Below are positions 4,462 to 64,000 of a stretch of DNA of 64,000 bases, in pieces. The notes under the pieces are model-generated. The model was not told the origin of the DNA, searched no databases, and saw only the letters and a program-made list of their open reading frames with translations. How positions within the stretch are numbered: position 1 is the first letter of the stretch; each line of letters opens with the position of its first letter. Made by a program: the position numbers and the translations under genes. Source of the stretch: Acidimicrobiia bacterium (GTDB lineage Bacteria; Actinomycetota; Acidimicrobiia; Spongiisociales; ZC4RG35); the NCBI GenBank assembly GCA_033720975.1, contig JAWWBL010000001.1, positions 8,611 to 72,610 on the forward strand, given 5' to 3'.

Positions 4462-5094
4462 TCAGTCCAGCCTCGCCCTGATCATGGCAATCACGGTCGC
4501 CACAGCGGCCGGGTTGTAGCCCTCTGGGATGATGAGGTCGGCGTACCGCTTGGAAGGCTCCACGAACTCGAGGTGCATCGGGCGGACAGTCTTGAAATAC
4601 TGGGTCATCACCGAAGCAACCGTGCGGCCCCTCTCTTCGATGTCACGCTCGAGCCGCCGCGCCAGCCTGATGTCGGGATCTGTGTCGACGAAGATCTTCA
4701 GGTCTAGAGCTGCGCGTAGCGCCGGCTCGGCCAGGACGAGGATCCCTTCGACGATCACGACGGGGGCGGGCTCGACTCGAACCGTGTCGTCGGTCCGCAG
4801 GTGCGCCGAGAAGTCATAGATCGGCTTCTCGACCGGCTCCCCCCTCCTCAGCCCCTCCAAGTTCTCGATGAGGAGAGATGACTCCAGCGAGTCCGGGTGG
4901 TCATAGTTGACCTTTGCCCGTTCTTCGGGAGAAAGCTCAGGTCTGTCTCGGTAGTACGAGTCATGGGTTAGGAGGGCAACCCTGCCGTCGAGGCGTTCGA
5001 TGACCGCCTCGGCGATCGTGGTCTTGCCGGATCCGGATCCACCGGCGACTCCGATGAAAAGTGGCGGGTCGGGATCCCACGGGCGGAAGGGCAT
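4462..5094 (-). CDS. udk: Uridine kinase
   Basis: P-loop GVAGGSGSGKTT followed by DSYY, DHP and IIEG motifs typical of Udk. Confidence 0.85.
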   Translation of the reverse strand: MPFRPWDPDPPLFIGVAGGSGSGKTTIAEAVIERLDGRVALLTHDSYYRDRPELSPEERAKVNYDHPDSLESSLLIENLEGLRRGEPVEKPIYDFSAHLRTDDTVRVEPAPVVIVEGILVLAEPALRAALDLKIFVDTDPDIRLARRLERDIEERGRTVASVMTQYFKTVRPMHLEFVEPSKRYADLIIPEGYNPAAVATVIAMIRARLD

Positions 5095-7908: not shown

Positions 7909-9091
7909 CGCTCGGGGCCCTCTCGCGGGGACGTTGGTTCTCGAGCTGGGCAACCTGATCGCCGGTCCGTACGCCGGGATGCTTCTCGCCGACTTCGGGG
8001 CGCGTGTCATCAAGGTCGAGCCCCGATCCGGTGACATCGGCCGGCAGTTCGGGCCGTTTCAAAACGGCGAGTCGATCTTTTTCTTGTCGGTCAACCGTGG
8101 CAAGGAGTCCCTCTGCCTCGACCCCAAGCACTGGGTCTCCAAGCGAGTCCTAGACAAACTCGTGAAAAAAGCCGACGTCGTACTCAGCAACCTCCGACAC
8201 GGGGCCATGGAGCGGATGGGCCTCGGCGAGGACCGGTGCCGGGAACTCAACCCTGGGGTGATATACGCAACGGTCTCGGCGTTCGGTTCCAGTGGGCCTT
8301 ACGCAAAACGACCCGGCATCGACATCGTCTTCCAGGGTGAGAGCGGGATGGTGTCGATCACCGGTGACCCCAAGGACGGGCCGCGGAAAACAGCCACGAC
8401 GATCGGCGACTACGTGGCAGGCACCAACACAGCTCTGGCCATTGCCGCCGCTCTCGCCGAAACACCACGAAAGGGACGCCGAATCGACATCTCACTGCGC
8501 GATGGGGTCATGGCCGTGCAATCTGGGTGGAACGCGCTCGCGTTCTCGAGAGGGAAACAACCCGAGCGAACGGGCACCGCCAGCCCCTTCCTGGCTCCAA
8601 ATCAAGTGTTCGAAGCTGCCGATGGTTCCTTCACCCTGGCAATCGTCTCCGACCGGCACTTTGAGATCCTGGCCGATGCCCTGGAACGACCGGATCTCGT
8701 CAAGGACTTCCCCACCAACGAGGACCGAATGAGAGGTCGGGAGAATCTGGTCCGCAGACTCTCCAGGCTGTTCAAGCAGGAGCCCCTGAATCATTGGATC
8801 GAGTTATTCGAGTCAGCGGGCCTGCCGGTTGGAAGGGTCCTCACCATCCCCGAAGCCTTCGAGGACCCTCAGGCCCGCCATCACGGCATGCTCGTCGAGT
8901 TCGAGCATCCCACGGCGGGGTTTGTTCGCACTACCGGTTCCCCGATCCGGTTGGACGGGGATCAGGCCCGCGCCGAGTCGTTGCCACCGGTGCTGGGCCA
9001 GCACACGAGGGAGATCCTCGCCGAGGCCGGCGTCGATCGTGAGACGATCGACAAGATGATCGGTGAGGGGACGGTGGTGGCCCCCTCATGA
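7901..9091 (+). CDS. CoA-transferase family III (CaiB/BaiF-type)
   Basis: GPLAGTLVLELGNLIAGPYAGMLLADFGARVIKVEP glycine-rich N-terminus characteristic of the family. Confidence 0.85.
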   Translation: MSDARGPLAGTLVLELGNLIAGPYAGMLLADFGARVIKVEPRSGDIGRQFGPFQNGESIFFLSVNRGKESLCLDPKHWVSKRVLDKLVKKADVVLSNLRHGAMERMGLGEDRCRELNPGVIYATVSAFGSSGPYAKRPGIDIVFQGESGMVSITGDPKDGPRKTATTIGDYVAGTNTALAIAAALAETPRKGRRIDISLRDGVMAVQSGWNALAFSRGKQPERTGTASPFLAPNQVFEAADGSFTLAIVSDRHFEILADALERPDLVKDFPTNEDRMRGRENLVRRLSRLFKQEPLNHWIELFESAGLPVGRVLTIPEAFEDPQARHHGMLVEFEHPTAGFVRTTGSPIRLDGDQARAESLPPVLGQHTREILAEAGVDRETIDKMIGEGTVVAPS

Positions 9092-9462
9092 ACATTCACT
9101 GGGCTGAGACAGTGTCCGACCAATGGGAGGATGTGAGATCCGAGCTCGCCCGTGCGTTCGAGACCAGCCGCTCCGCGGCGCGGAACGAGGAGTCCTTCGT
9201 TTATGTCGTCCACCACGACGACTTGTTGGGCAGGCGGGGCTACGGAAACGCCATGGTTGCCACAGGGCTGCTCTCTGCCGCGAGGACCGCTGCAATCGAA
9301 GGAGCCCGGAAGGGCTGGACCGCAAACGTGATCGCCTTCGACGACGGGGCTGATCGCGAACAGGTCCAGGCCTGGGCCGAACGCGTCGCTGGAGACTCGC
9401 TCGGCGTCACCGGAGAGTTGATCCGGGTCGGGTCAACCCACCTGGGAAAGGCGCTGCCGTGA
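9088..9462 (+). CDS. Small protein resembling a degenerate C-terminal half of an SDR
   Basis: ATGA overlap with the CoA-transferase stop and a 4-nt overlap with the next SDR gene. YGNAMVATGLLSAARTAAIE resembles the SDR catalytic helix but lacks the Lys. Confidence 0.4.
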   Translation: MNIHWAETVSDQWEDVRSELARAFETSRSAARNEESFVYVVHHDDLLGRRGYGNAMVATGLLSAARTAAIEGARKGWTANVIAFDDGADREQVQAWAERVAGDSLGVTGELIRVGSTHLGKALP

Positions 9463-10157
9463 ATGGCTCGATCGTGGTCACTGGCGCGGCGCGCGGCATA
9501 GGAAGGGCGATCTCGAGCCGGCTTGCCGCCAATCCCTCACTCACCGTCATCGGCGTCGACATCTCACCGGACCTGGCGTCAGTCGACGACATCGTCCCGG
9601 TGCAGACGGATCTGACCAATGACGATGGCGTGGACGCAGTGACTAGAACGGTCGAAGAGAGTGGTTCACCGCTTCTGGGCATCGTCAACAACGCTGGCAT
9701 CACCCGGGACGCCAGACTGGTCAACATGACCGACGAGGACTTCGCGGCCGTCCTCGACGTGAACCTCGGAGCTTCCTACCGACTGTCAGATGCCCTGGCG
9801 CCGCTCATGACCGAGGGAGGCTCGATCGTCAACATCGCCTCGCGCGCCTATCTCGGCAACTTCGGCCAGTTCAACTACTCGATGTCGAAGGGCGGATTGG
9901 TCGGCCTCACCAGGGCGATGGCCCTCTCATTGGCGCCCGGCATCAGAGTCAACGCGGTCGCACCCGGGCTGATCGGCACCGAGATGGCCATGGCGATCCC
10001 AGAAGACGTGTTGGACAAGATGGTCGCGGCGATACCCCTGGGGCGAATGGGATCTCCGGACGAGATCGCAAATGTGGTCTGGTTCCTGCTCACCCCCCTC
10101 TCGTCCTACGTCACCGGTCACGTGCTCGTCGTCGGTGGAGGAAGGTCCCTCAGCTAG
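9459..10157 (+). CDS. SDR-family oxidoreductase (FabG-like)
   Basis: TGAARGIGRAI Rossmann motif, NNAG, and an S...Y...K-like catalytic region (SMSKGGLVGL, PGLIGTEM). Confidence 0.85.
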   Translation: MNGSIVVTGAARGIGRAISSRLAANPSLTVIGVDISPDLASVDDIVPVQTDLTNDDGVDAVTRTVEESGSPLLGIVNNAGITRDARLVNMTDEDFAAVLDVNLGASYRLSDALAPLMTEGGSIVNIASRAYLGNFGQFNYSMSKGGLVGLTRAMALSLAPGIRVNAVAPGLIGTEMAMAIPEDVLDKMVAAIPLGRMGSPDEIANVVWFLLTPLSSYVTGHVLVVGGGRSLS

Positions 10158-10603
10158 TAGTAGAGGCGGGAGAGCCGCTCCGCCACCATCGCCGGCTTCT
10201 CCTGGCCCTCGACCTCTGCGATCACCGTCTGTTTCATGTGAATCCCGCCGGGGACCTCACTGACCTCATCGAGCGTCACCCTCATACGGAGCCTCGAGCC
10301 GACCGGGACAGGGGCGGGAAACCTGACCTTGTCGAGGCCGTAATTGACTCCCATCATCGGGTTGCCGACGTCGAGAGGCACCTCGGCGGCCAAGGCGACG
10401 CTCAGGGACAGGGTGAGGAACCCGTGGGCGATCGTGCCGCCAAACGGTGTCTGAGCCGCCAACTCCGGGTTCACATGTATGAATTGATGATCGTCCGTTG
10501 CTTCCGCGAACGCGTCGACCCGCTCCTGGCTGATCTCATGCCAGGCGCTGGCACCTAGCTCCGTGCCGACCAGGCTTTGGAGTCGTTCCAGTACTTCCTT
10601 CAT
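10154..10603 (-). CDS. MaoC-like (R)-specific enoyl-CoA hydratase / hot-dog dehydratase
   Basis: FIHVNPELAAQTPFGGTIAHGFLTLS is the MaoC hot-dog signature. The track ORF runs to 10831, but the domain starts at MKEVLERL, so I trimmed the start to the ATG at 10603. Confidence 0.7.
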   Translation of the reverse strand: MKEVLERLQSLVGTELGASAWHEISQERVDAFAEATDDHQFIHVNPELAAQTPFGGTIAHGFLTLSLSVALAAEVPLDVGNPMMGVNYGLDKVRFPAPVPVGSRLRMRVTLDEVSEVPGGIHMKQTVIAEVEGQEKPAMVAERLSRLYY

Positions 10604-10693
10604 GAGTCGGATTCTCGCATGCAACAGAGGTTCGGGGCGAAGCGAAGTTTCAGGCATGGCCGCTTCCCCTCGGAGAGCGCTAGCCTTCAGGCC

Positions 10694-10999
10694 ATGGCCG
10701 AGAAAACCAAGTTGATGGTCTGGATCGATCAAGACCTCTGCACCGGGGACGGCATCTGCGAAGAGATCACCCCGGACGTGTTCGTCGGTAGAGACGATGG
10801 GCTGTGGGTGGTCAAAGAGGACGCCAAACACTTCGGTGACACAGTGGTCTTTGACGGCGAGCAGGCCCCAGACGGCGCGCGTGGCATGGCCCGAGTGCCT
10901 GACTCACTGATCGAAGACGTGATCGAGTCGGCCGAGGAGTGCCCCGGAGAGTGCATCATGATCGAGCCCTTCCAGGAGTCAGCCGTCCACAGCGGCTGA
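10694..10999 (+). CDS. Ferredoxin (single-cluster Fe-S)
   Basis: IDQDLCTGDGICEEITPDVF ... ECPGECI cysteine pattern. Start trimmed to MAEKTKL at 10694, inside the longer track ORF. Confidence 0.65.
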   Translation: MAEKTKLMVWIDQDLCTGDGICEEITPDVFVGRDDGLWVVKEDAKHFGDTVVFDGEQAPDGARGMARVPDSLIEDVIESAEECPGECIMIEPFQESAVHSG

Positions 11000-59034: not shown

Positions 59035-59112
59035 CCACACAGAAGAGAGGTAGGGATTCCCTACCTCTCTTTCTCGTTGTTCAGCTCGGGCCCCCGCAGC
59101 CGGCTGTGGCGC

Positions 59113-60010: not shown

Positions 60011-60085
60011 GGGAGCGTAGAACAGTCTGGAGTGTTCGCCGGCCTGTCAAGCCGGAGGTCGCGGGTTCAAATCCCGTCGTTCCCG
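60011..60085 (+). tRNA. tRNA-Asp (anticodon GTC)
   Basis: Folded by hand. Acceptor GGGAGCG/CGTTCCC (one G-U), D-arm GAAC...GTTC, anticodon stem CCGGC/GCCGG with loop CTGTCAA, T-arm GCGGG-TTCAAAT-CCCGT. Confidence 0.75.
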
Positions 60086-60117
60086 CCCCATCGGAATCGA
60101 GAGGTTTCGGTTGAGGA

Positions 60118-60190
60118 GGTCAGGTAGCTCAGTTGGTAGAGCGCCGGTCTGAAAAACCGGAGGTCGACGGATCGACGCCGTCCCTGACCA
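60118..60190 (+). tRNA. tRNA-Phe (anticodon GAA)
   Basis: Acceptor GGTCAGG/CCTGACC, D-arm GCTC-AGTTGGTA-GAGC, anticodon stem CCGGT/ACCGG with loop CTGAAAA, T-arm GACGG-ATCGACG-CCGTC, discriminator A. Confidence 0.85.
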
Positions 60191-60224
60191 CTACCCGGTG
60201 GATGCCCGGACGACGGCTCCCAGT

Positions 60225-60458
60225 TCACTGGTCGCGGAAGTCCTCGCGCATCTCCCCGACAGCCTGATCATGGGTGAGGATCCGCTCGAGTCCTTTATTG
60301 AACTCTTCGACGATCCCCCACCGATAGAACGCACGCTGCGTCGAAGACAGGCTCGACATACGCTGGGTGAGGGCCTCGCGATCAACCCAAAATTCGGCCC
60401 TCTGGTCGGAATCGAGATCGGTTCGCCATCCGCATACGTCGGCAACTGAGTAGTCCAT
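60225..60458 (-). CDS. Hypothetical small protein (77 aa)
   Basis: ORF immediately 3' of tRNA-Phe. Coding-like composition but no motif recognised. It competes with an overlapping 154-aa minus-strand ORF that I consider less likely. Confidence 0.3.
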   Translation of the reverse strand: MDYSVADVCGWRTDLDSDQRAEFWVDREALTQRMSSLSSTQRAFYRWGIVEEFNKGLERILTHDQAVGEMREDFRDQ

Positions 60459-60481
60459 CCCGGGAAGCTAGCGCATCGAAC

Positions 60482-61486
60482 GTGTTCCAAACTCGCTGCC
60501 TCACGACGACACAGGCCCGCTTCCTGGATGCGGGGATTCAGCTCGAAGCGCGTAGACTGGTCCCACCCACTGCAAGGATTCCGTTGGCCAAGACCGAGAA
60601 GCTCGAACTCGTCAAGGCCATCGAGCACGAAGTCGAAAGACTCACCGCTGAGCACCTAGAGCGCCGCTCCGACTGGTACTACCACGACATCGTTCCCTGG
60701 GAGCGCGGAAAGAGTTACAGGGACAAGCCGTGGGATCCCTCCCAGGTGACCATTTCCGAGAACGCCAGAACGTCGCTCGTCCTCAATCTTCTCACCGAGG
60801 ACAACCTTCCCTACTACCACTCACTCATCGAGAAACACATGCCGAAGGGCTCTGCTTTCGTGCGGTGGAACCGTCTGTGGACCGCCGAGGAGGCTCAGCA
60901 CTCGATCGCGATCCGTAGCTACTTACTTACCTCCCGCAACACCGACCCCTACCAACTCGAAGATGATCGCAAGGCAACGATGATCAACGGTTACCAGCCC
61001 ACCTACGACGACCCCACCGAGATCTTCGCCTACACCGCGACCCAGGAATTGGCGACGCGGGTGAGCCATCGCAATGCGGGGAAGATCACCGACGACCCGG
61101 CCGCATACGAACTGATGAAGAACATCGCCGCAGACGAGAACCATCACTTCATCTTCTACAAGGAGGTGATGCGGGCCATGCTCGACCGCGCCCCTCAGCT
61201 AGTCCTCGACAGCATCTTCCGCGTGTTCGACAACTTCGAGATGCCTGGCGTCGCCATGCCCAACTTCTTGCGTCGATCGATTCAGGTGGCCAAGGCCGGG
61301 GTCTACAACCTCCGCATCCACCACGACCGTGTGCTCACGCCGCTGATCAAAGATTGGGGGATAGCCCGCCTATCCGGTCTAACCCCGCATGCGGCCGAGA
61401 TGCAGGAGAAGATCATGGCGCTGCCCGACCTGATAATGCGCAAAGCCGAGGTCTTCGAGAAGCGGGTAGGGCTGGGCTATGCCTGA
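60482..61486 (+). CDS. Acyl-[acyl-carrier-protein] desaturase (soluble di-iron desaturase, DesA-like)
   Basis: Di-iron ligand helices with EExxH-type motifs (WTAEEAQHSIAI; AADENHHFIFY) and overall similarity to stearoyl-ACP desaturase-family layout. Start uncertain. Confidence 0.75.
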   Translation: MFQTRCLTTTQARFLDAGIQLEARRLVPPTARIPLAKTEKLELVKAIEHEVERLTAEHLERRSDWYYHDIVPWERGKSYRDKPWDPSQVTISENARTSLVLNLLTEDNLPYYHSLIEKHMPKGSAFVRWNRLWTAEEAQHSIAIRSYLLTSRNTDPYQLEDDRKATMINGYQPTYDDPTEIFAYTATQELATRVSHRNAGKITDDPAAYELMKNIAADENHHFIFYKEVMRAMLDRAPQLVLDSIFRVFDNFEMPGVAMPNFLRRSIQVAKAGVYNLRIHHDRVLTPLIKDWGIARLSGLTPHAAEMQEKIMALPDLIMRKAEVFEKRVGLGYA

Positions 61487-61781
61487 CCACTCGTCAACCA
61501 CAGGAGCCATGTTTGCCCGAGAGCAAGAACTGAGGGCAATGAGCGACCAGGAGTTGAGCGCCGAGTGGGTTCGGGCGATGACCGTCGAGATCGATCCTGA
61601 TAACCGAACCGCCCAACTAGCTACCATCGACGAGGTCGTGGCCGAAATCAATGCTCGCTCTGAACGAGCGCCGTCCACCTCCCTCATTATCACTCCCGAC
61701 GACGCGCTTGCAGTCAGCGAGTACCTGAAGAGCACCATCACCGCTGGCGGTACGGGTTGGTATGAGGAAGAACCCGCCTAG
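61479..61781 (+). CDS. Hypothetical protein (100 aa), translationally coupled to the desaturase
   Basis: 8-nt overlap with the desaturase stop. No recognisable motif. Confidence 0.4.
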   Translation: MPDHSSTTGAMFAREQELRAMSDQELSAEWVRAMTVEIDPDNRTAQLATIDEVVAEINARSERAPSTSLIITPDDALAVSEYLKSTITAGGTGWYEEEPA

Positions 61782-62168
61782 CGGTCAGCGATCTTCGGCG
61801 TCCTCAGAGTCCCTTTCATTCCGCTCACGATCCTCGAGACGTTCCCGTTCGTGGCGTGCGTGCGATTCCTTTCGCTCACGTTCGTGGCGTTCTGCGTCCT
61901 CTTTGCGTTCTCGCTCGTAGCGTTCGGAGTCTGTTTCCACTGGTTAGGCCGTTTCCTCGTTGATTCTAGGCCTCGAGTGTCTCAAGCCTTCCCCCGGCAT
62001 TCTTGACTGGCAGGATCCCTGGTAGCGGTGGAGCGCCATTACAATCACACCATGTCGTGATGCTTTCGGCGACGTTAAACACGAAAGTGAGTTAGGAAGC
62101 TTGGACCTCGCTATCTCCATGCCGTAGGAGACAGCGCAGGTCCTTTTCCTATTGGTTCACGACGTCCG

Positions 62169-62423
62169 TTACTCGGCCTCGAGTCCGAGTTCGACAAAGA
62201 TACGATGCCGCTCGTCGCTGTAGTCGTCGTGCGACACCTCGCCCGATTGGTACCGAGCACTCAGGCGCGCGAATTGCTGCATGAGGGCATCTTCCTCCGC
62301 CTTGGTCATCTCATCGCCGTCCGACTCCCGGGAAAAGCGTGCTTCCCGCTTCCGGGCCTGCTTCTCTTGTCGGGCTTTCTCACGATTCCGCTTCTGGAAG
62401 CTCTCGCGACCGCGGTTCCCCAT
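62169..62423 (-). CDS. Small charged hypothetical protein (84 aa)
   Basis: 15 nt downstream of the RRM gene on the same strand. Basic N-terminus (KRNREKARQEKQARKREARF). Confidence 0.4.
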   Translation of the reverse strand: MGNRGRESFQKRNREKARQEKQARKREARFSRESDGDEMTKAEEDALMQQFARLSARYQSGEVSHDDYSDERHRIFVELGLEAE

Positions 62424-62438
62424 CTAGACCGGCGCGGT

Positions 62439-62690
62439 TCAGGATCGGGGTTTGGCGATGTTGACCTTCAGCGACCGTCCGTCGAGATCGCGTCCGTTGA
62501 GGGCCTCGATGGCCGAGTTGGCCGCCTCTCTGCTCTGCATTTCCACGAAACCGAAGCCTCTTGATCTGCCGGTGTCACGATCGGTCACCACTTGGGCGTT
62601 AGTTACCTGCCCATGCTCAGCGAAGAGACTCTCGAGTTGGCTTGTGGACGTCTGGAATGAAAGATTCCCAACATAGATATTGGCTGACAT
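62439..62690 (-). CDS. RNA-binding protein with a single RRM (RNP-1 RGFGFVEM, RNP-2 IYVGNL)
   Basis: MSANIYVGNLSF ... RGFGFVEM are canonical RNP-2/RNP-1 motifs. 83 aa. Confidence 0.85.
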   Translation of the reverse strand: MSANIYVGNLSFQTSTSQLESLFAEHGQVTNAQVVTDRDTGRSRGFGFVEMQSREAANSAIEALNGRDLDGRSLKVNIAKPRS

Positions 62691-63060
62691 TGCATGCTCC
62701 TTTGAGCTCGTACCGTCGTTGGATCACCGAGCGCCGGATTTATCGCCAAATTTGACGACTCACTCAGGCTGCAACATCCGACGGAACGAAGAAGCAAGCA
62801 AGGCGTGGCACACAAATGGCGTGTGCACAGTTCAAGGTTAACCACGACGCGGGCTCATCCGGACATCAGGACTCGGACGCCGGGTGGCTTTGAGGTCCGC
62901 CAACTGTTTGGGGAGGCAGTGCGGATGCAAACCAATCTGCAAACGCACTGGAGCAAACAAGGGGCACAGGATCACGCAAGCGGCACGTCAGCACAGCCGA
63001 ATCCTCTTGTCCTGCCTCATGCGAGGGCACATTGCGACACAGGAGGCTAAGTGGCTCAAC

Positions 63061-63104
63061 GGTCTGAAAACCGGAGGTCGACGGATCGACGCCGTCCCTG
63101 ACCA
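63061..63104 (+). repeat. 44-nt direct repeat of the 3' half of tRNA-Phe (anticodon-stem to discriminator); candidate attR
   Basis: GGTCTGAAAACCGGAGGTCGACGGATCGACGCCGTCCCTGACCA equals tRNA-Phe 60146..60190 apart from one A deleted from the anticodon-loop A-run. Sequence upstream of it diverges from the tRNA. Confidence 0.8.
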
Positions 63105-63141
63105 CCATCTTTCACGACTCGAGCAACGGGACGTGAGCGCT

Positions 63142-63726
63142 TCAGCGTGGCGCGAGAAGGCGAGAGACGACCCAACGGTGTTTGTCGATCTTTAGGTCAC
63201 GTTGGAAGCCCAACTGTTCGAAGGTGGACAGGGCCCCCATGAACAGAAATCCTGCTGGGACGGATTCGGCGGGTTCGGGATAGCCCTCCACGACACCGCC
63301 TCCCATCTCTGTAATCAGCTCGAGCACTCCTTCAAAGGCAGCCGTGGCTACACGGCTGCGGCGATGCCCTTTGGCAACGTAGTGGCACGCGATACGCCAG
63401 TCCGTCAAGCTGGTTACGGTCTTTTCGTGGGCTGCCCGATTCTTGATTCGGGGTAGTTCGGCCGGCGAACCGAACTGGCACCAGCCGATGCAGTCGTCTC
63501 CCTCGAAGACGAGCGCGGCGTGAGCATCACCCCGGAATACACGTTGTTTTTTGCGCTTCCTGTTGAGGGCGGCGCTCGTGTCCTTTCCATCGCCCTCAGG
63601 GTGGAACGCCATACACCAGCACCCACTGGGAAATCCGTCGGATGTCTCCACTAGGTGAGCAAAGGCAGGCCATGTCGATCGATCCAGGGCCTTGACCGTC
63701 AGCTCTGTTCCAGCCGCGTCATTCAT
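63142..63726 (-). CDS. GNAT-family N-acetyltransferase
   Basis: About 194 aa from MNDAAGTELTVKALDRSTW. Acetyl-CoA-binding-like segment RSRVATAAFEGVLELITEMGG. The track ORF 63142..63948 carries a non-coding-like N-terminal extension. Confidence 0.65.
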   Translation of the reverse strand: MNDAAGTELTVKALDRSTWPAFAHLVETSDGFPSGCWCMAFHPEGDGKDTSAALNRKRKKQRVFRGDAHAALVFEGDDCIGWCQFGSPAELPRIKNRAAHEKTVTSLTDWRIACHYVAKGHRRSRVATAAFEGVLELITEMGGGVVEGYPEPAESVPAGFLFMGALSTFEQLGFQRDLKIDKHRWVVSRLLAPR

Positions 63727-63787
63727 GCTTCGACCATAGGTTCTTCGTGAGGGTGCGACATTCAATTGCATTTTGCAGGTTGTCTCG

Positions 63788-64000
63788 TCACCCGCTTGTT
63801 GCCCAGTCCAACACACGCGTAGCCCGCATAGTGTTCCAGCGGCTGGGGAAACCGTCCGGTCCTTCCATCTCGAAATGGGTCGGACCCTGGTGGGTGTTCT
63901 CCAGTGGCCAGCGCCCCGCGGCATCGCGCTTTTTTGCGACCAGGTCAATGGCCTCGGCGCACCGATCGTCGACGACGGCTCCCGTCGAGCGAAAGTACTC
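63788..64000 (-). CDS. 3' end of a CDS running off the window (C-terminal fragment, function unknown)
   Basis: Open frame from the window edge to the stop at 63788, ending ...PTHFEMEGPDGFPSRWNTMRATRVLDWATSG. Confidence 0.3.
   Translation of the reverse strand, partial: EYFRSTGAVVDDRCAEAIDLVAKKRDAAGRWPLENTHQGPTHFEMEGPDGFPSRWNTMRATRVLDWATSG

Follow-up and report, generated by a model that had tools for sequence, protein, structure and literature searches.

Tyrosine integrases that target the 3' ends of tRNA genes are carried by actinomycete integrative and conjugative elements (AICEs) of the pSAM2/SLP1 type and by temperate actinophages. The cold-induced gene sets of cyanobacteria comprise Rbp proteins with an RNA recognition motif (RRM), the DEAD-box helicase CrhR and fatty-acid desaturases. 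In the Islander collection, 3' fragments of the target gene were recorded for 3760 of 3919 islands and anticodon-centred sites for 2083 (PMC4383910); cis-mobilizable elements (CIMEs) are described in ICEberg 2.0 as having lost the genes of integration and transfer and kept attL and attR (PMC6323972). The locus reported here lies in a stretch of 64,000 nt (the window; positions 8,611 to 72,610 of contig JAWWBL010000001.1, assembly GCA_033720975.1, Acidimicrobiia bacterium) and consists of an intact tRNA-Phe gene, a direct repeat of its 3' part about 2.9 kb downstream, and the DNA between the two (the islet; 60192-63059), in which six open reading frames (ORFs) were found: p77, a soluble acyl-acyl carrier protein (acyl-ACP) desaturase, p100, a Glu/Arg-repeat mini-ORF, p84 and a single-RRM protein. 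The islet is read, at a probability of about 0.75, as the degenerate remainder of an integrative element that entered tRNA-Phe by tyrosine-integrase recombination at an attachment (att) site reaching from anticodon stem to 3' end, and that has since lost its recombination module.

By this mechanism, integration would have split the tRNA-Phe gene; the element's own 47-nt copy would have rebuilt the gene (attL) and the original 3' part would have been pushed to the far end (attR); the recombination module and any transfer functions would have been lost later. Left over would be the right arm and a core of 2.65 kb (60225-62875) that holds the lineage-typical gene set and the rare p100. The gene module would have come with the element or been picked up by it, instead of arriving afterwards, and the islet is now probably immobile unless an integrase acts on it in trans. 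Positions of all features are collected in the table; related loci are cited by L numbers.

The tRNA-Phe site and the ends of the islet

Repeat of the tRNA-Phe 3' part: tRNA-Phe was called by Rfam at 60118-60190 (70 bits); the encoded 3' trailer is CTA and not CCA. A repeat finder and a pattern search gave an exact direct repeat of 39 nt (60153-60191 and 63067-63105), and 0 of 100 shuffles yielded a match. Reading outwards, the identity block was extended to 47 nt; its first base lies in the 5' strand of the anticodon stem, and its last is the base that follows the discriminator. The distal copy (46 nt) differs solely by one A fewer in the A-run of the anticodon loop. Beyond the repeat end the flanks diverge (TACCC after the left copy, CATCT after the distal copy); CA follows the attR core, giving ..ACCA-CCA. 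An original prediction, made from the letters of the window, had placed the repeat at 60146-60190 and 63061-63104; the repeat is real and lies where it was put, each end being one base longer than was given. Of the single A deletion that it described (63066-63070), the window and the ENA contig ERZ28654253 scaffold_16 (L001, 157 kb; the window corresponds to part of its reverse complement) both bear record, with four A's; the Logan unitig L002 of the same project (SRR21430008, 2928 bp) has five, the repeat being 47/47 there, and either a polymorphism or a homopolymer error may account for the difference.

Fragment and intact gene stand in direct orientation on one replicon, and the fragment starts in the anticodon stem and finishes at the 3' end of the gene, which are the geometry and the register of Islander islands. 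A third att copy, exact or degenerate, was sought in 72.7 kb (the window and 8.7 kb of the same contig) and none was found; with two copies in all, the count favours an att scar over a dispersed repeat, as had been predicted. The gaps GNAT/p312, p312/MT117 and p147/DUF4230 downstream, searched for degenerate att copies, gave nothing above the null distribution. A 29-mer of tRNA-Phe had no match in 2.9 million viral contigs.

Occurrence across Acidimicrobiia: The 29-mer, taken from the tRNA-Phe 3' part, was scanned against 185,579 species genomes and gave at least 120 stretches; among those listed nearly all are titled Acidimicrobiia or Acidimicrobiaceae, the minority labels being Acidobacteriota, Actinomycetota, Gemmatimonadales and 'uncultured bacterium' (metagenome-assembled genomes, MAGs). 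Of the matches listed (120 loci), 85 were full tRNA-Phe genes and 49 were 3' fragments, and 7 ran into a tile edge; like that of the window, all 49 fragments start in the anticodon stem or loop and finish where the tRNA does. Pairs of copies in the same orientation, 0.15-6.9 kb apart within one 8-kb tile, numbered 21 among the loci listed. The interval of L028 holds a full tyrosine recombinase of 380 aa (Phage_integrase PF00589, E 7e-28), those of L006, L082 and L043 hold truncated integrase remnants, and 17 of the 21 are without integrase, in tiles whose length of 8 kb biases the survey toward short intervals and with integrase detection based on six seed sequences. Full integrases of the same family stand beside tRNA-Phe in L074, L103 and L108 as well; the integrases of relatives at this site are 33-38% identical to those of Gordonia and Mycobacterium phages. 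Elements have integrated often at tRNA-Phe across Acidimicrobiia, and since 17 of 21 intervals hold no integrase, the integrase-less islet is the usual end state there. The register of the repeat, the class-wide fragments and the integrases in some of the intervals bear out the attL/attR-type scar of site-specific integration into the tRNA 3' part that had been proposed.

Arms: In L017 a tRNA-Phe fragment is preceded by an arm to which the 184 nt next to attR could be aligned (116 nt at 69%, E 2e-7); the alignment is in register, at equal distance from the att core, and spans the stretch of GCAAAC repeats. We read these 184 nt, from the alignment, as the putative retained right arm of the element. 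As to intactness of attL and attR in the CIME sense, the cores are 46-47/47, the right arm is L017-like and the left arm is absent or unrecognisable; the left-end motif CCATCCAnCTAGCTGCG of the integrase-bearing elements does not follow tRNA-Phe in the window. An attB-type junction would be the tRNA-Phe 5' half joined to ..CCATCTTTCACG, and an attP-type junction would be ..GGCTCAA-core-TACCCGG.

Further observations on the site: The T-loop of tRNA-Phe (60166-60176, T-arm) is GGAUCGACGCC, with A at the position of the near-universal U54; that of the neighbouring tRNA-Asp is the usual GGUUCAAAUCC. The unusual T-loop is kept in all of the at least 120 Acidimicrobiia loci matched by the 29-mer (L003-L122). 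A sub-threshold Rfam match to YrlA (Y RNA-like; 60039-60170; 31.7 bits, gathering score 69) is almost certainly the tRNA-like part of that model on tRNA-Asp and tRNA-Phe; the Rfam scan gave no families besides the two tRNAs and this match. In L017 (DATDPP010000084.1) one 8-kb tile holds at least four tandem tRNA-Phe 3' fragments, 1.2-4.5 kb apart, with no integrase between; the intervals carry genes of small membrane proteins, nucleotidyltransferase/HEPN-like proteins, transporters and oxidoreductases.

Sister genome, cargo module and competing readings

Genome B: Two Logan unitigs (L218 and L135; SRR21290134), overlapping by k-1 = 30 nt inside the desaturase gene, gave 9.1 kb of a sister genome, the closest relative. 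In window orientation it opens with the tRNA-Phe 3' end and the left-end motif CCATCCAACTAGCTGCG; there follow, within 2.9 kb, a left-end ORF, a TetR gene, an SRPBCC gene and genes of a 215-aa protein and a 162-aa SEC-C protein, then p77, the desaturase, p100, the Glu/Arg ORF, a frameshifted p84 and the RRM gene with its leader. This module has the same orientation relative to tRNA-Phe as in the window and is 86-96% identical to it in nucleotides; homology stops at the p77 stop codon on the left and near 62875 on the right, and the putative right arm is absent from B. The left-end ORF and the SEC-C protein are common to the integrase-bearing elements of L028, L103, L053, L006, L085 and L074. 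The elements of L103 and L028 have, directly after the SEC-C gene, a xis-like helix-turn-helix (HTH) gene and then int, and it is at this xis-int position that the module starts in B. Genome B ties the module to the tRNA-Phe 3' end and to remnants of the integrase family, and therefore supports the reading of the islet as a decayed element.

Nucleotide identity of window to B was 0.96 for the desaturase, 0.94 for the RRM gene, 0.86-0.87 for p100/p84, 0.84 for p273 and 0.74 for LuxR, the last two belonging to the block upstream of tRNA-Asp and tRNA-Phe in the window (A block: p273, LuxR, DUF1905 and hydrolase genes). Divergence at four-fold sites was 39/223 = 0.17 for the module genes and 272/501 = 0.54 for the A block. 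The lower value hints at a more recent exchange of the module, and it is no more than a hint, as the gradient could have come from constraint on the desaturase and RRM genes. As proof of recent transfer the gap was not accepted, the identity gradient being smooth and the desaturase and RRM genes strongly constrained.

Cargo module: Genomic context was looked up for six desaturase homologs and gave 12 loci. The canonical module begins with a DEAD-box helicase with C-terminal RRM (-), divergent from the desaturase (+), and goes on with the Glu/Arg mini-ORF (-), p77 (-), the RRM protein (+) and an 85-aa protein (+). Identity of L123-L126 to the window was 77-83% for p77, 82-87% for the desaturase, 65-75% for the RRM protein and 48-58% for p84. 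The window module differs from the canonical one in that the helicase is absent, the gene order is different and p100 is extra. In the more distant Acidimicrobiia L012 and L057, RRM genes lie downstream of tRNA-Asp/tRNA-Phe, in L057 with a Glu/Arg mini-ORF as well. The survey defines an Acidimicrobiia module of DEAD-box/RRM helicase, acyl-ACP desaturase, Glu/Arg mini-protein, p77, RRM protein with leader, and p85, the composition of which suggests a response of membrane and RNA to stress; judged by its homologs, the cargo is a conserved stress-type module of Acidimicrobiia rather than foreign DNA, and, by analogy with the cold-induced genes of cyanobacteria, may serve adaptation of membrane and RNA to low temperature or other stress. 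Separately, in L012 (OZ244213.1, complete chromosome) five RRM genes cluster with a CspA-like gene and a DEAD-box helicase gene no more than 7 kb downstream of tRNA-Phe.

Points that speak against a decayed element: A left arm was not found, the 33-nt spacer after tRNA-Phe matching nothing in any fetched locus (blast). The islet holds no integrase, as the prediction had stated: tblastn with six locus-derived integrases (E ≤ 10) was empty, six-frame hmmsearch with an integrase profile gave nothing in the islet, in the 72.7 kb or in genome B, and Pfam showed no integrase among the islet ORFs. No xis and no remnant of either gene was found in the islet, so that the identity of the element rests on the att cores, one arm and the comparison with other genomes. 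To the right of the module, B has the terminator of p273 and then the A block inverted; since this side is not att, at least one non-site-specific rearrangement separates window and B. The 12 loci belong to no fewer than five plainly distinct flank contexts, the module being counted in 10 of them (L123-L134); no tRNA or att fragment was found near the module in the four loci scanned (L123-L126), and no direct repeats flank the canonical modules at six loci. GC at third codon positions (GC3) is 0.749 for the islet genes and 0.751 for 19 flanking genes; it follows that the islet bears no compositional sign of foreign origin, and the comparison of the islet with its flanks, which had been put forward as a check, gave no foreign signature in GC3. 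An empty site, in which tRNA-Phe would be followed directly by the downstream GNAT gene, was sought in relatives and not found. CCA follows 50% of full genes and 50% of fragments; being equally common in both classes, the CCA after the distal copy is uninformative as to which copy is native, and encoded CCA was dropped as a sign of it. Finally, the spacers between tRNA-Asp and tRNA-Phe are unrelated between the window and the ENA contig (30 vs 27 nt), one D-loop base differs, and this difference in spacer leaves some doubt about the linkage across the tRNA hub.

As regards composition, the islet GC of 0.588 is in the lowest 1% of windows of equal size; the low value comes from the non-coding DNA and from amino-acid content. 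Foreign origin as judged by composition was dropped in view of the equal GC3.

The decayed islet nevertheless remains the best description on the strength of the class survey and the right arm; integration followed by integrase loss does not suffice by itself as its history, since B shows a secondary rearrangement.

Module as a possible rearranged neighbour: A second reading, to be held tentatively and behind the first, retains the att scar of an old element and takes the module for a chromosomal neighbour that secondary rearrangement brought between attL and attR, replacing xis-int. Module and A block are neighbours in the window and in B in opposite relative orientation, and either arrangement would be turned into the other by one inversion, its breakpoints lying near 59085 and 62880; the start of the B module at the xis-int position of L103 and L028, the equal GC3 of islet and flanks, and the chromosomal place of the module in at least five other contexts, not att-bounded where checked, agree with it too. 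It has to contend with the right arm, which stands directly beside the module and puts the latter inside the element ends, and with the synonymous divergence from B given above, which is lower for the module than for the A block and hints at recent exchange, constraint being again a possible explanation.

Possible element moved in trans: That the islet is a functional non-autonomous element (a CIME-like cassette or an att-cassette array), moved by an integrase encoded elsewhere or by a co-resident element, is unlikely. It would account for the near-perfect att cores (46/47 in the window, 47/47 in the Logan unitig), for the right arm kept with its repeated GCAAAC motifs, for the frequency of tandem short intervals without integrase (at least four fragments in L017; 17 of 21 intervals among the loci listed), for L080 and L093, which share identical element right ends before different downstream flanks, and for synonymous divergence from B that is lower in the islet than in its flanks. 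Against this, the left arm is absent, the sole other copy of a p100-bearing module (that of B) is not att-precise at its borders, the 72.7 kb of contig searched hold no integrase, reads of a circular junction or of an empty site were not seen, and the count of intervals comes from tiles that favour short ones and from integrase detection with six seeds. A wider form of this idea, marginally more doubtful still, makes the tRNA-Phe 3' end of Acidimicrobiia a cassette-accumulating locus, at which a tyrosine integrase acting in trans would capture short, integrase-less att-bounded cassettes, the desaturase/RRM stress module among them, stack them in tandem and pass them from one species to another; if true, it would be an integron-like system on a tRNA att site, and the window islet would be a live cassette and not a fossil.

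Assembly support: The unitig L002 is made up of the islet with 30 nt of the repeat at either end, both islet junction k-mers being thus present in an independent unitig. Window and ENA contig are identical over 11.5 kb except from the end of tRNA-Asp to the D-loop of tRNA-Phe (60087-60135), and they agree in the order tRNA-Phe, islet, fragment, GNAT-like gene. The disagreement in the spacer is probably assembly-graph ambiguity at shared tRNA sequences; tRNA sequences are hubs of the assembly graph because they are common to many members of the community, and the locus is a concrete case of such sequences making metagenome assemblies disagree. The islet junctions and the linkage to the upstream block have the support of L002, of the gene order in both assemblies and of the adjacency in B. 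That the repeat matches by chance, is a dispersed one or was produced in assembly at a shared tRNA sequence is highly improbable: the tRNA-Phe 3' part is identical in at least 120 species-level genomes, and hence a hub, and the two assemblies differ in spacer and D-loop base, but the shuffles gave no match, the copies in 72.7 kb number two, both junctions recur in the independent unitig, two assemblies concur on the order of the locus, and B independently ties the module to the tRNA-Phe 3' end and to the A block.

Genes of the islet and of the flanks

Positions, strands and supporting evidence of the features; window coordinates unless a locus is named (rc, reverse complement)
Feature	Position	Strand	Evidence or remark
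tRNA-Asp(GTC), upstream partner of tRNA-Phe	60011..60087	+	ARAGORN; Rfam 62.5 bits
tRNA-Phe(GAA), intact; read as regenerated target gene, attL side	60118..60191	+	ARAGORN; direct sequence reading
attL core (putative), 47-nt identity block, anticodon stem to one base past discriminator	60145..60191	+
attR core (putative), displaced tRNA-Phe 3' fragment	63060..63105	+	46/47 identity; sequence reading, repeat finder
Left junction spacer, 33 nt, tRNA-Phe to p77 stop	60192..60224	.	no counterpart in genome B or fetched loci
p77, small conserved protein	60225..60458	-
Soluble acyl-ACP desaturase, 300 aa	60584..61486	+	PF03405, E 7e-62
p100	61479..61781	+	8-nt overlap with desaturase stop codon
Glu/Arg-repeat mini-ORF, 51 aa	61785..61940	-	18-nt unit recurring every 33 nt
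p84, directly downstream of RRM gene	62169..62423	-	48-58% to 85-aa gene after RRM, L123-L126
Single-RRM RNA-binding protein, 83 aa	62439..62690	-	PF00076, E 1e-23
RRM gene 5' leader/promoter region, conserved	62691..62875	-	alignment of 9 loci
Element right arm (putative), attR-proximal, 184 nt	62876..63059	+	absent from genome B; GCAAAC repeats at 62938-62973
GNAT-like gene, flank outside islet	63142..63726	-	56-64% homologs downstream of tRNA-Phe, L087/L088
Glu/Arg mini-ORF copy, L125	5985-6143
Glu/Arg mini-ORF copy, L126	8894-9094
Glu/Arg mini-ORF copy, L127	8932-9105
Glu/Arg mini-ORF copy, L133	7038-7196
Glu/Arg mini-ORF copy, L135	1004-1159
Glu/Arg mini-ORF copy, L057 (rc)	4538-4783

Islet ORFs: All six are backed by conservation or family models, and the predicted content (desaturase, RRM protein, three small ORFs and Glu/Arg mini-ORF) was recovered in full. 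Desaturase: PF03405 full-length (209.5 bits, cutoff 22.7; long ORF, residues 39-328), with 3164 homologs, of which the closest at full length are 87% identical. RRM protein: PF00076 (83.5, cutoff 20.7) and NF058537 Rbp_regulator (111.8 bits, cutoff 100). p77: 119 homologs of 60-95% identity; the AlphaFold2 model had pLDDT 82 and gave no PDB fold match at E ≤ 0.001. p100: rare, with 3 homologs among 5.8 billion proteins, and outside the canonical module. p77, p84, p100 and the Glu/Arg ORF had no match in Pfam, NCBIfam or PHROGs. PHROGs gave no match for five of the six islet ORFs (the desaturase was left out) or for the GNAT-like gene, and the islet showed no similarity to plasmids.

Glu/Arg mini-ORF: It is kept beside the desaturase or RRM gene in loci within L125-L135 and in L057, and from this conservation it is probably a genuine small protein and not a chance ORF. 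Its homologs of 51-81 aa, with repeats of the ERHERER type, adjoin desaturase or RRM genes in many genomes.

RRM leader: In 62691-63059 (about 370 nt) no ORF is backed by any family model. RNAalifold on seven close sequences predicted 17 pairs, 1 of them covarying, with a helix in which UGCUU pairs with the Shine-Dalgarno sequence GGAGCA, and CCGUCG with CGACGG; with distant RRM genes added, the consensus fold had no structure, and no Rfam family matched the leader. A leader of about 110 nt (62691-62800, -) is strongly kept in L123, L125, L126, L127, L131, L132 and L135: CGCCTTGCTTGCT..TCCGTCGGATGTCGC..CGACGG..GCTCAAAGGAGCA.

Flanks: The tRNA-Asp/tRNA-Phe pair is kept in the relatives L042, L087, L088, L012 and L057, and the region 3' of tRNA-Phe was variable in every comparison made. 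Three of these relatives are islet-free: L042 has tRNA-Asp, tRNA-Phe and then a DUF4230 gene (78% identical to the gene that lies 2.6 kb past the distal copy of the repeat); L087 has tRNA-Phe, a nitroreductase gene and then a GNAT-like gene (56%); in L088 the GNAT-like gene (64%) lies 4 kb downstream of tRNA-Phe, the homologs of L087 and L088 standing 1.3-4 kb downstream. The downstream gene of the window had been called GNAT; it has no Pfam or NCBIfam match and is now termed GNAT-like. A scan of JGI metagenomes anchored on it gave 80 loci, all of other lineages and none with matching tRNA-Phe. One of the stretches with a GNAT-like homolog, L149 (JGI Ga0209169_10002541; unrelated lineage), has 25 tRNA genes within 2.6 kb downstream of it (8260-10812).

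Between the distal att and DUF4230 the contig has the GNAT-like gene, p312, the methyltransferase fragment MT117 and p147 (window 63106-64000 and L001 6964-9549, the latter equal to window coordinates of about 63142-65727). L042 has none of the four at that place, and an att-bounded islet of L043 contains homologs of MT117 and p147. The four-gene block is possibly an islet of earlier date, in which no decayed att copy could be detected.

Comparison with known systems

By itself the window islet is a scar of a well-understood type in an uncultured Acidimicrobiia MAG and of limited import. As integrase-less decay is the usual outcome at this tRNA-Phe, island finders that require an integrase miss most islets there.

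Islander islands (PMC4383910): Common to both are the intact tRNA gene and the direct 3' fragment at the ends, the rebuilding of the gene by the element copy, and the anticodon-centred class of site. The islet differs in that a tyrosine integrase inside the interval is required of those islands and none is present here; at 2.9 kb it is far below their typical size, and its cargo is lineage-typical and not compositionally foreign.

AICEs and actinophages: The phylum and the tRNA 3'-end target are shared, and the integrases of relatives, with their 33-38% identity to phage ones, follow a xis-like HTH gene. The window is different in having no int, xis, rep, tra or phage genes; families of rep, FtsK-like tra and int-xis were sought among the six ORFs in Pfam, NCBIfam and PHROGs and none was found. 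The related elements of L103 (about 3.5 kb) and L028 (4.9 kb) are likewise without recognisable rep/tra or structural genes.

Cyanobacterial cold-induced sets: The same three protein types co-occur in the canonical Acidimicrobiia module, and the RRM protein meets NF058537. Here, unlike there, the desaturase is a soluble acyl-ACP enzyme (PF03405) and not a membrane acyl-lipid one, the window copy is without helicase, and the genes are clustered and not dispersed.

CIMEs (PMC6323972): CIMEs were described from Firmicutes families of integrative and conjugative or integrative and mobilizable elements, with accretion mobilization shown experimentally, whereas the window islet is known from sequence and its left arm is absent. 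In common with them the islet has att cores that are essentially intact on both sides and no genes of integration or transfer, the relative B has integrase-family remnants beside the cargo, and tandem accumulation is seen in related genomes; the islet is best taken for a decayed, CIME-like one, an ordinary kind of genomic fossil.

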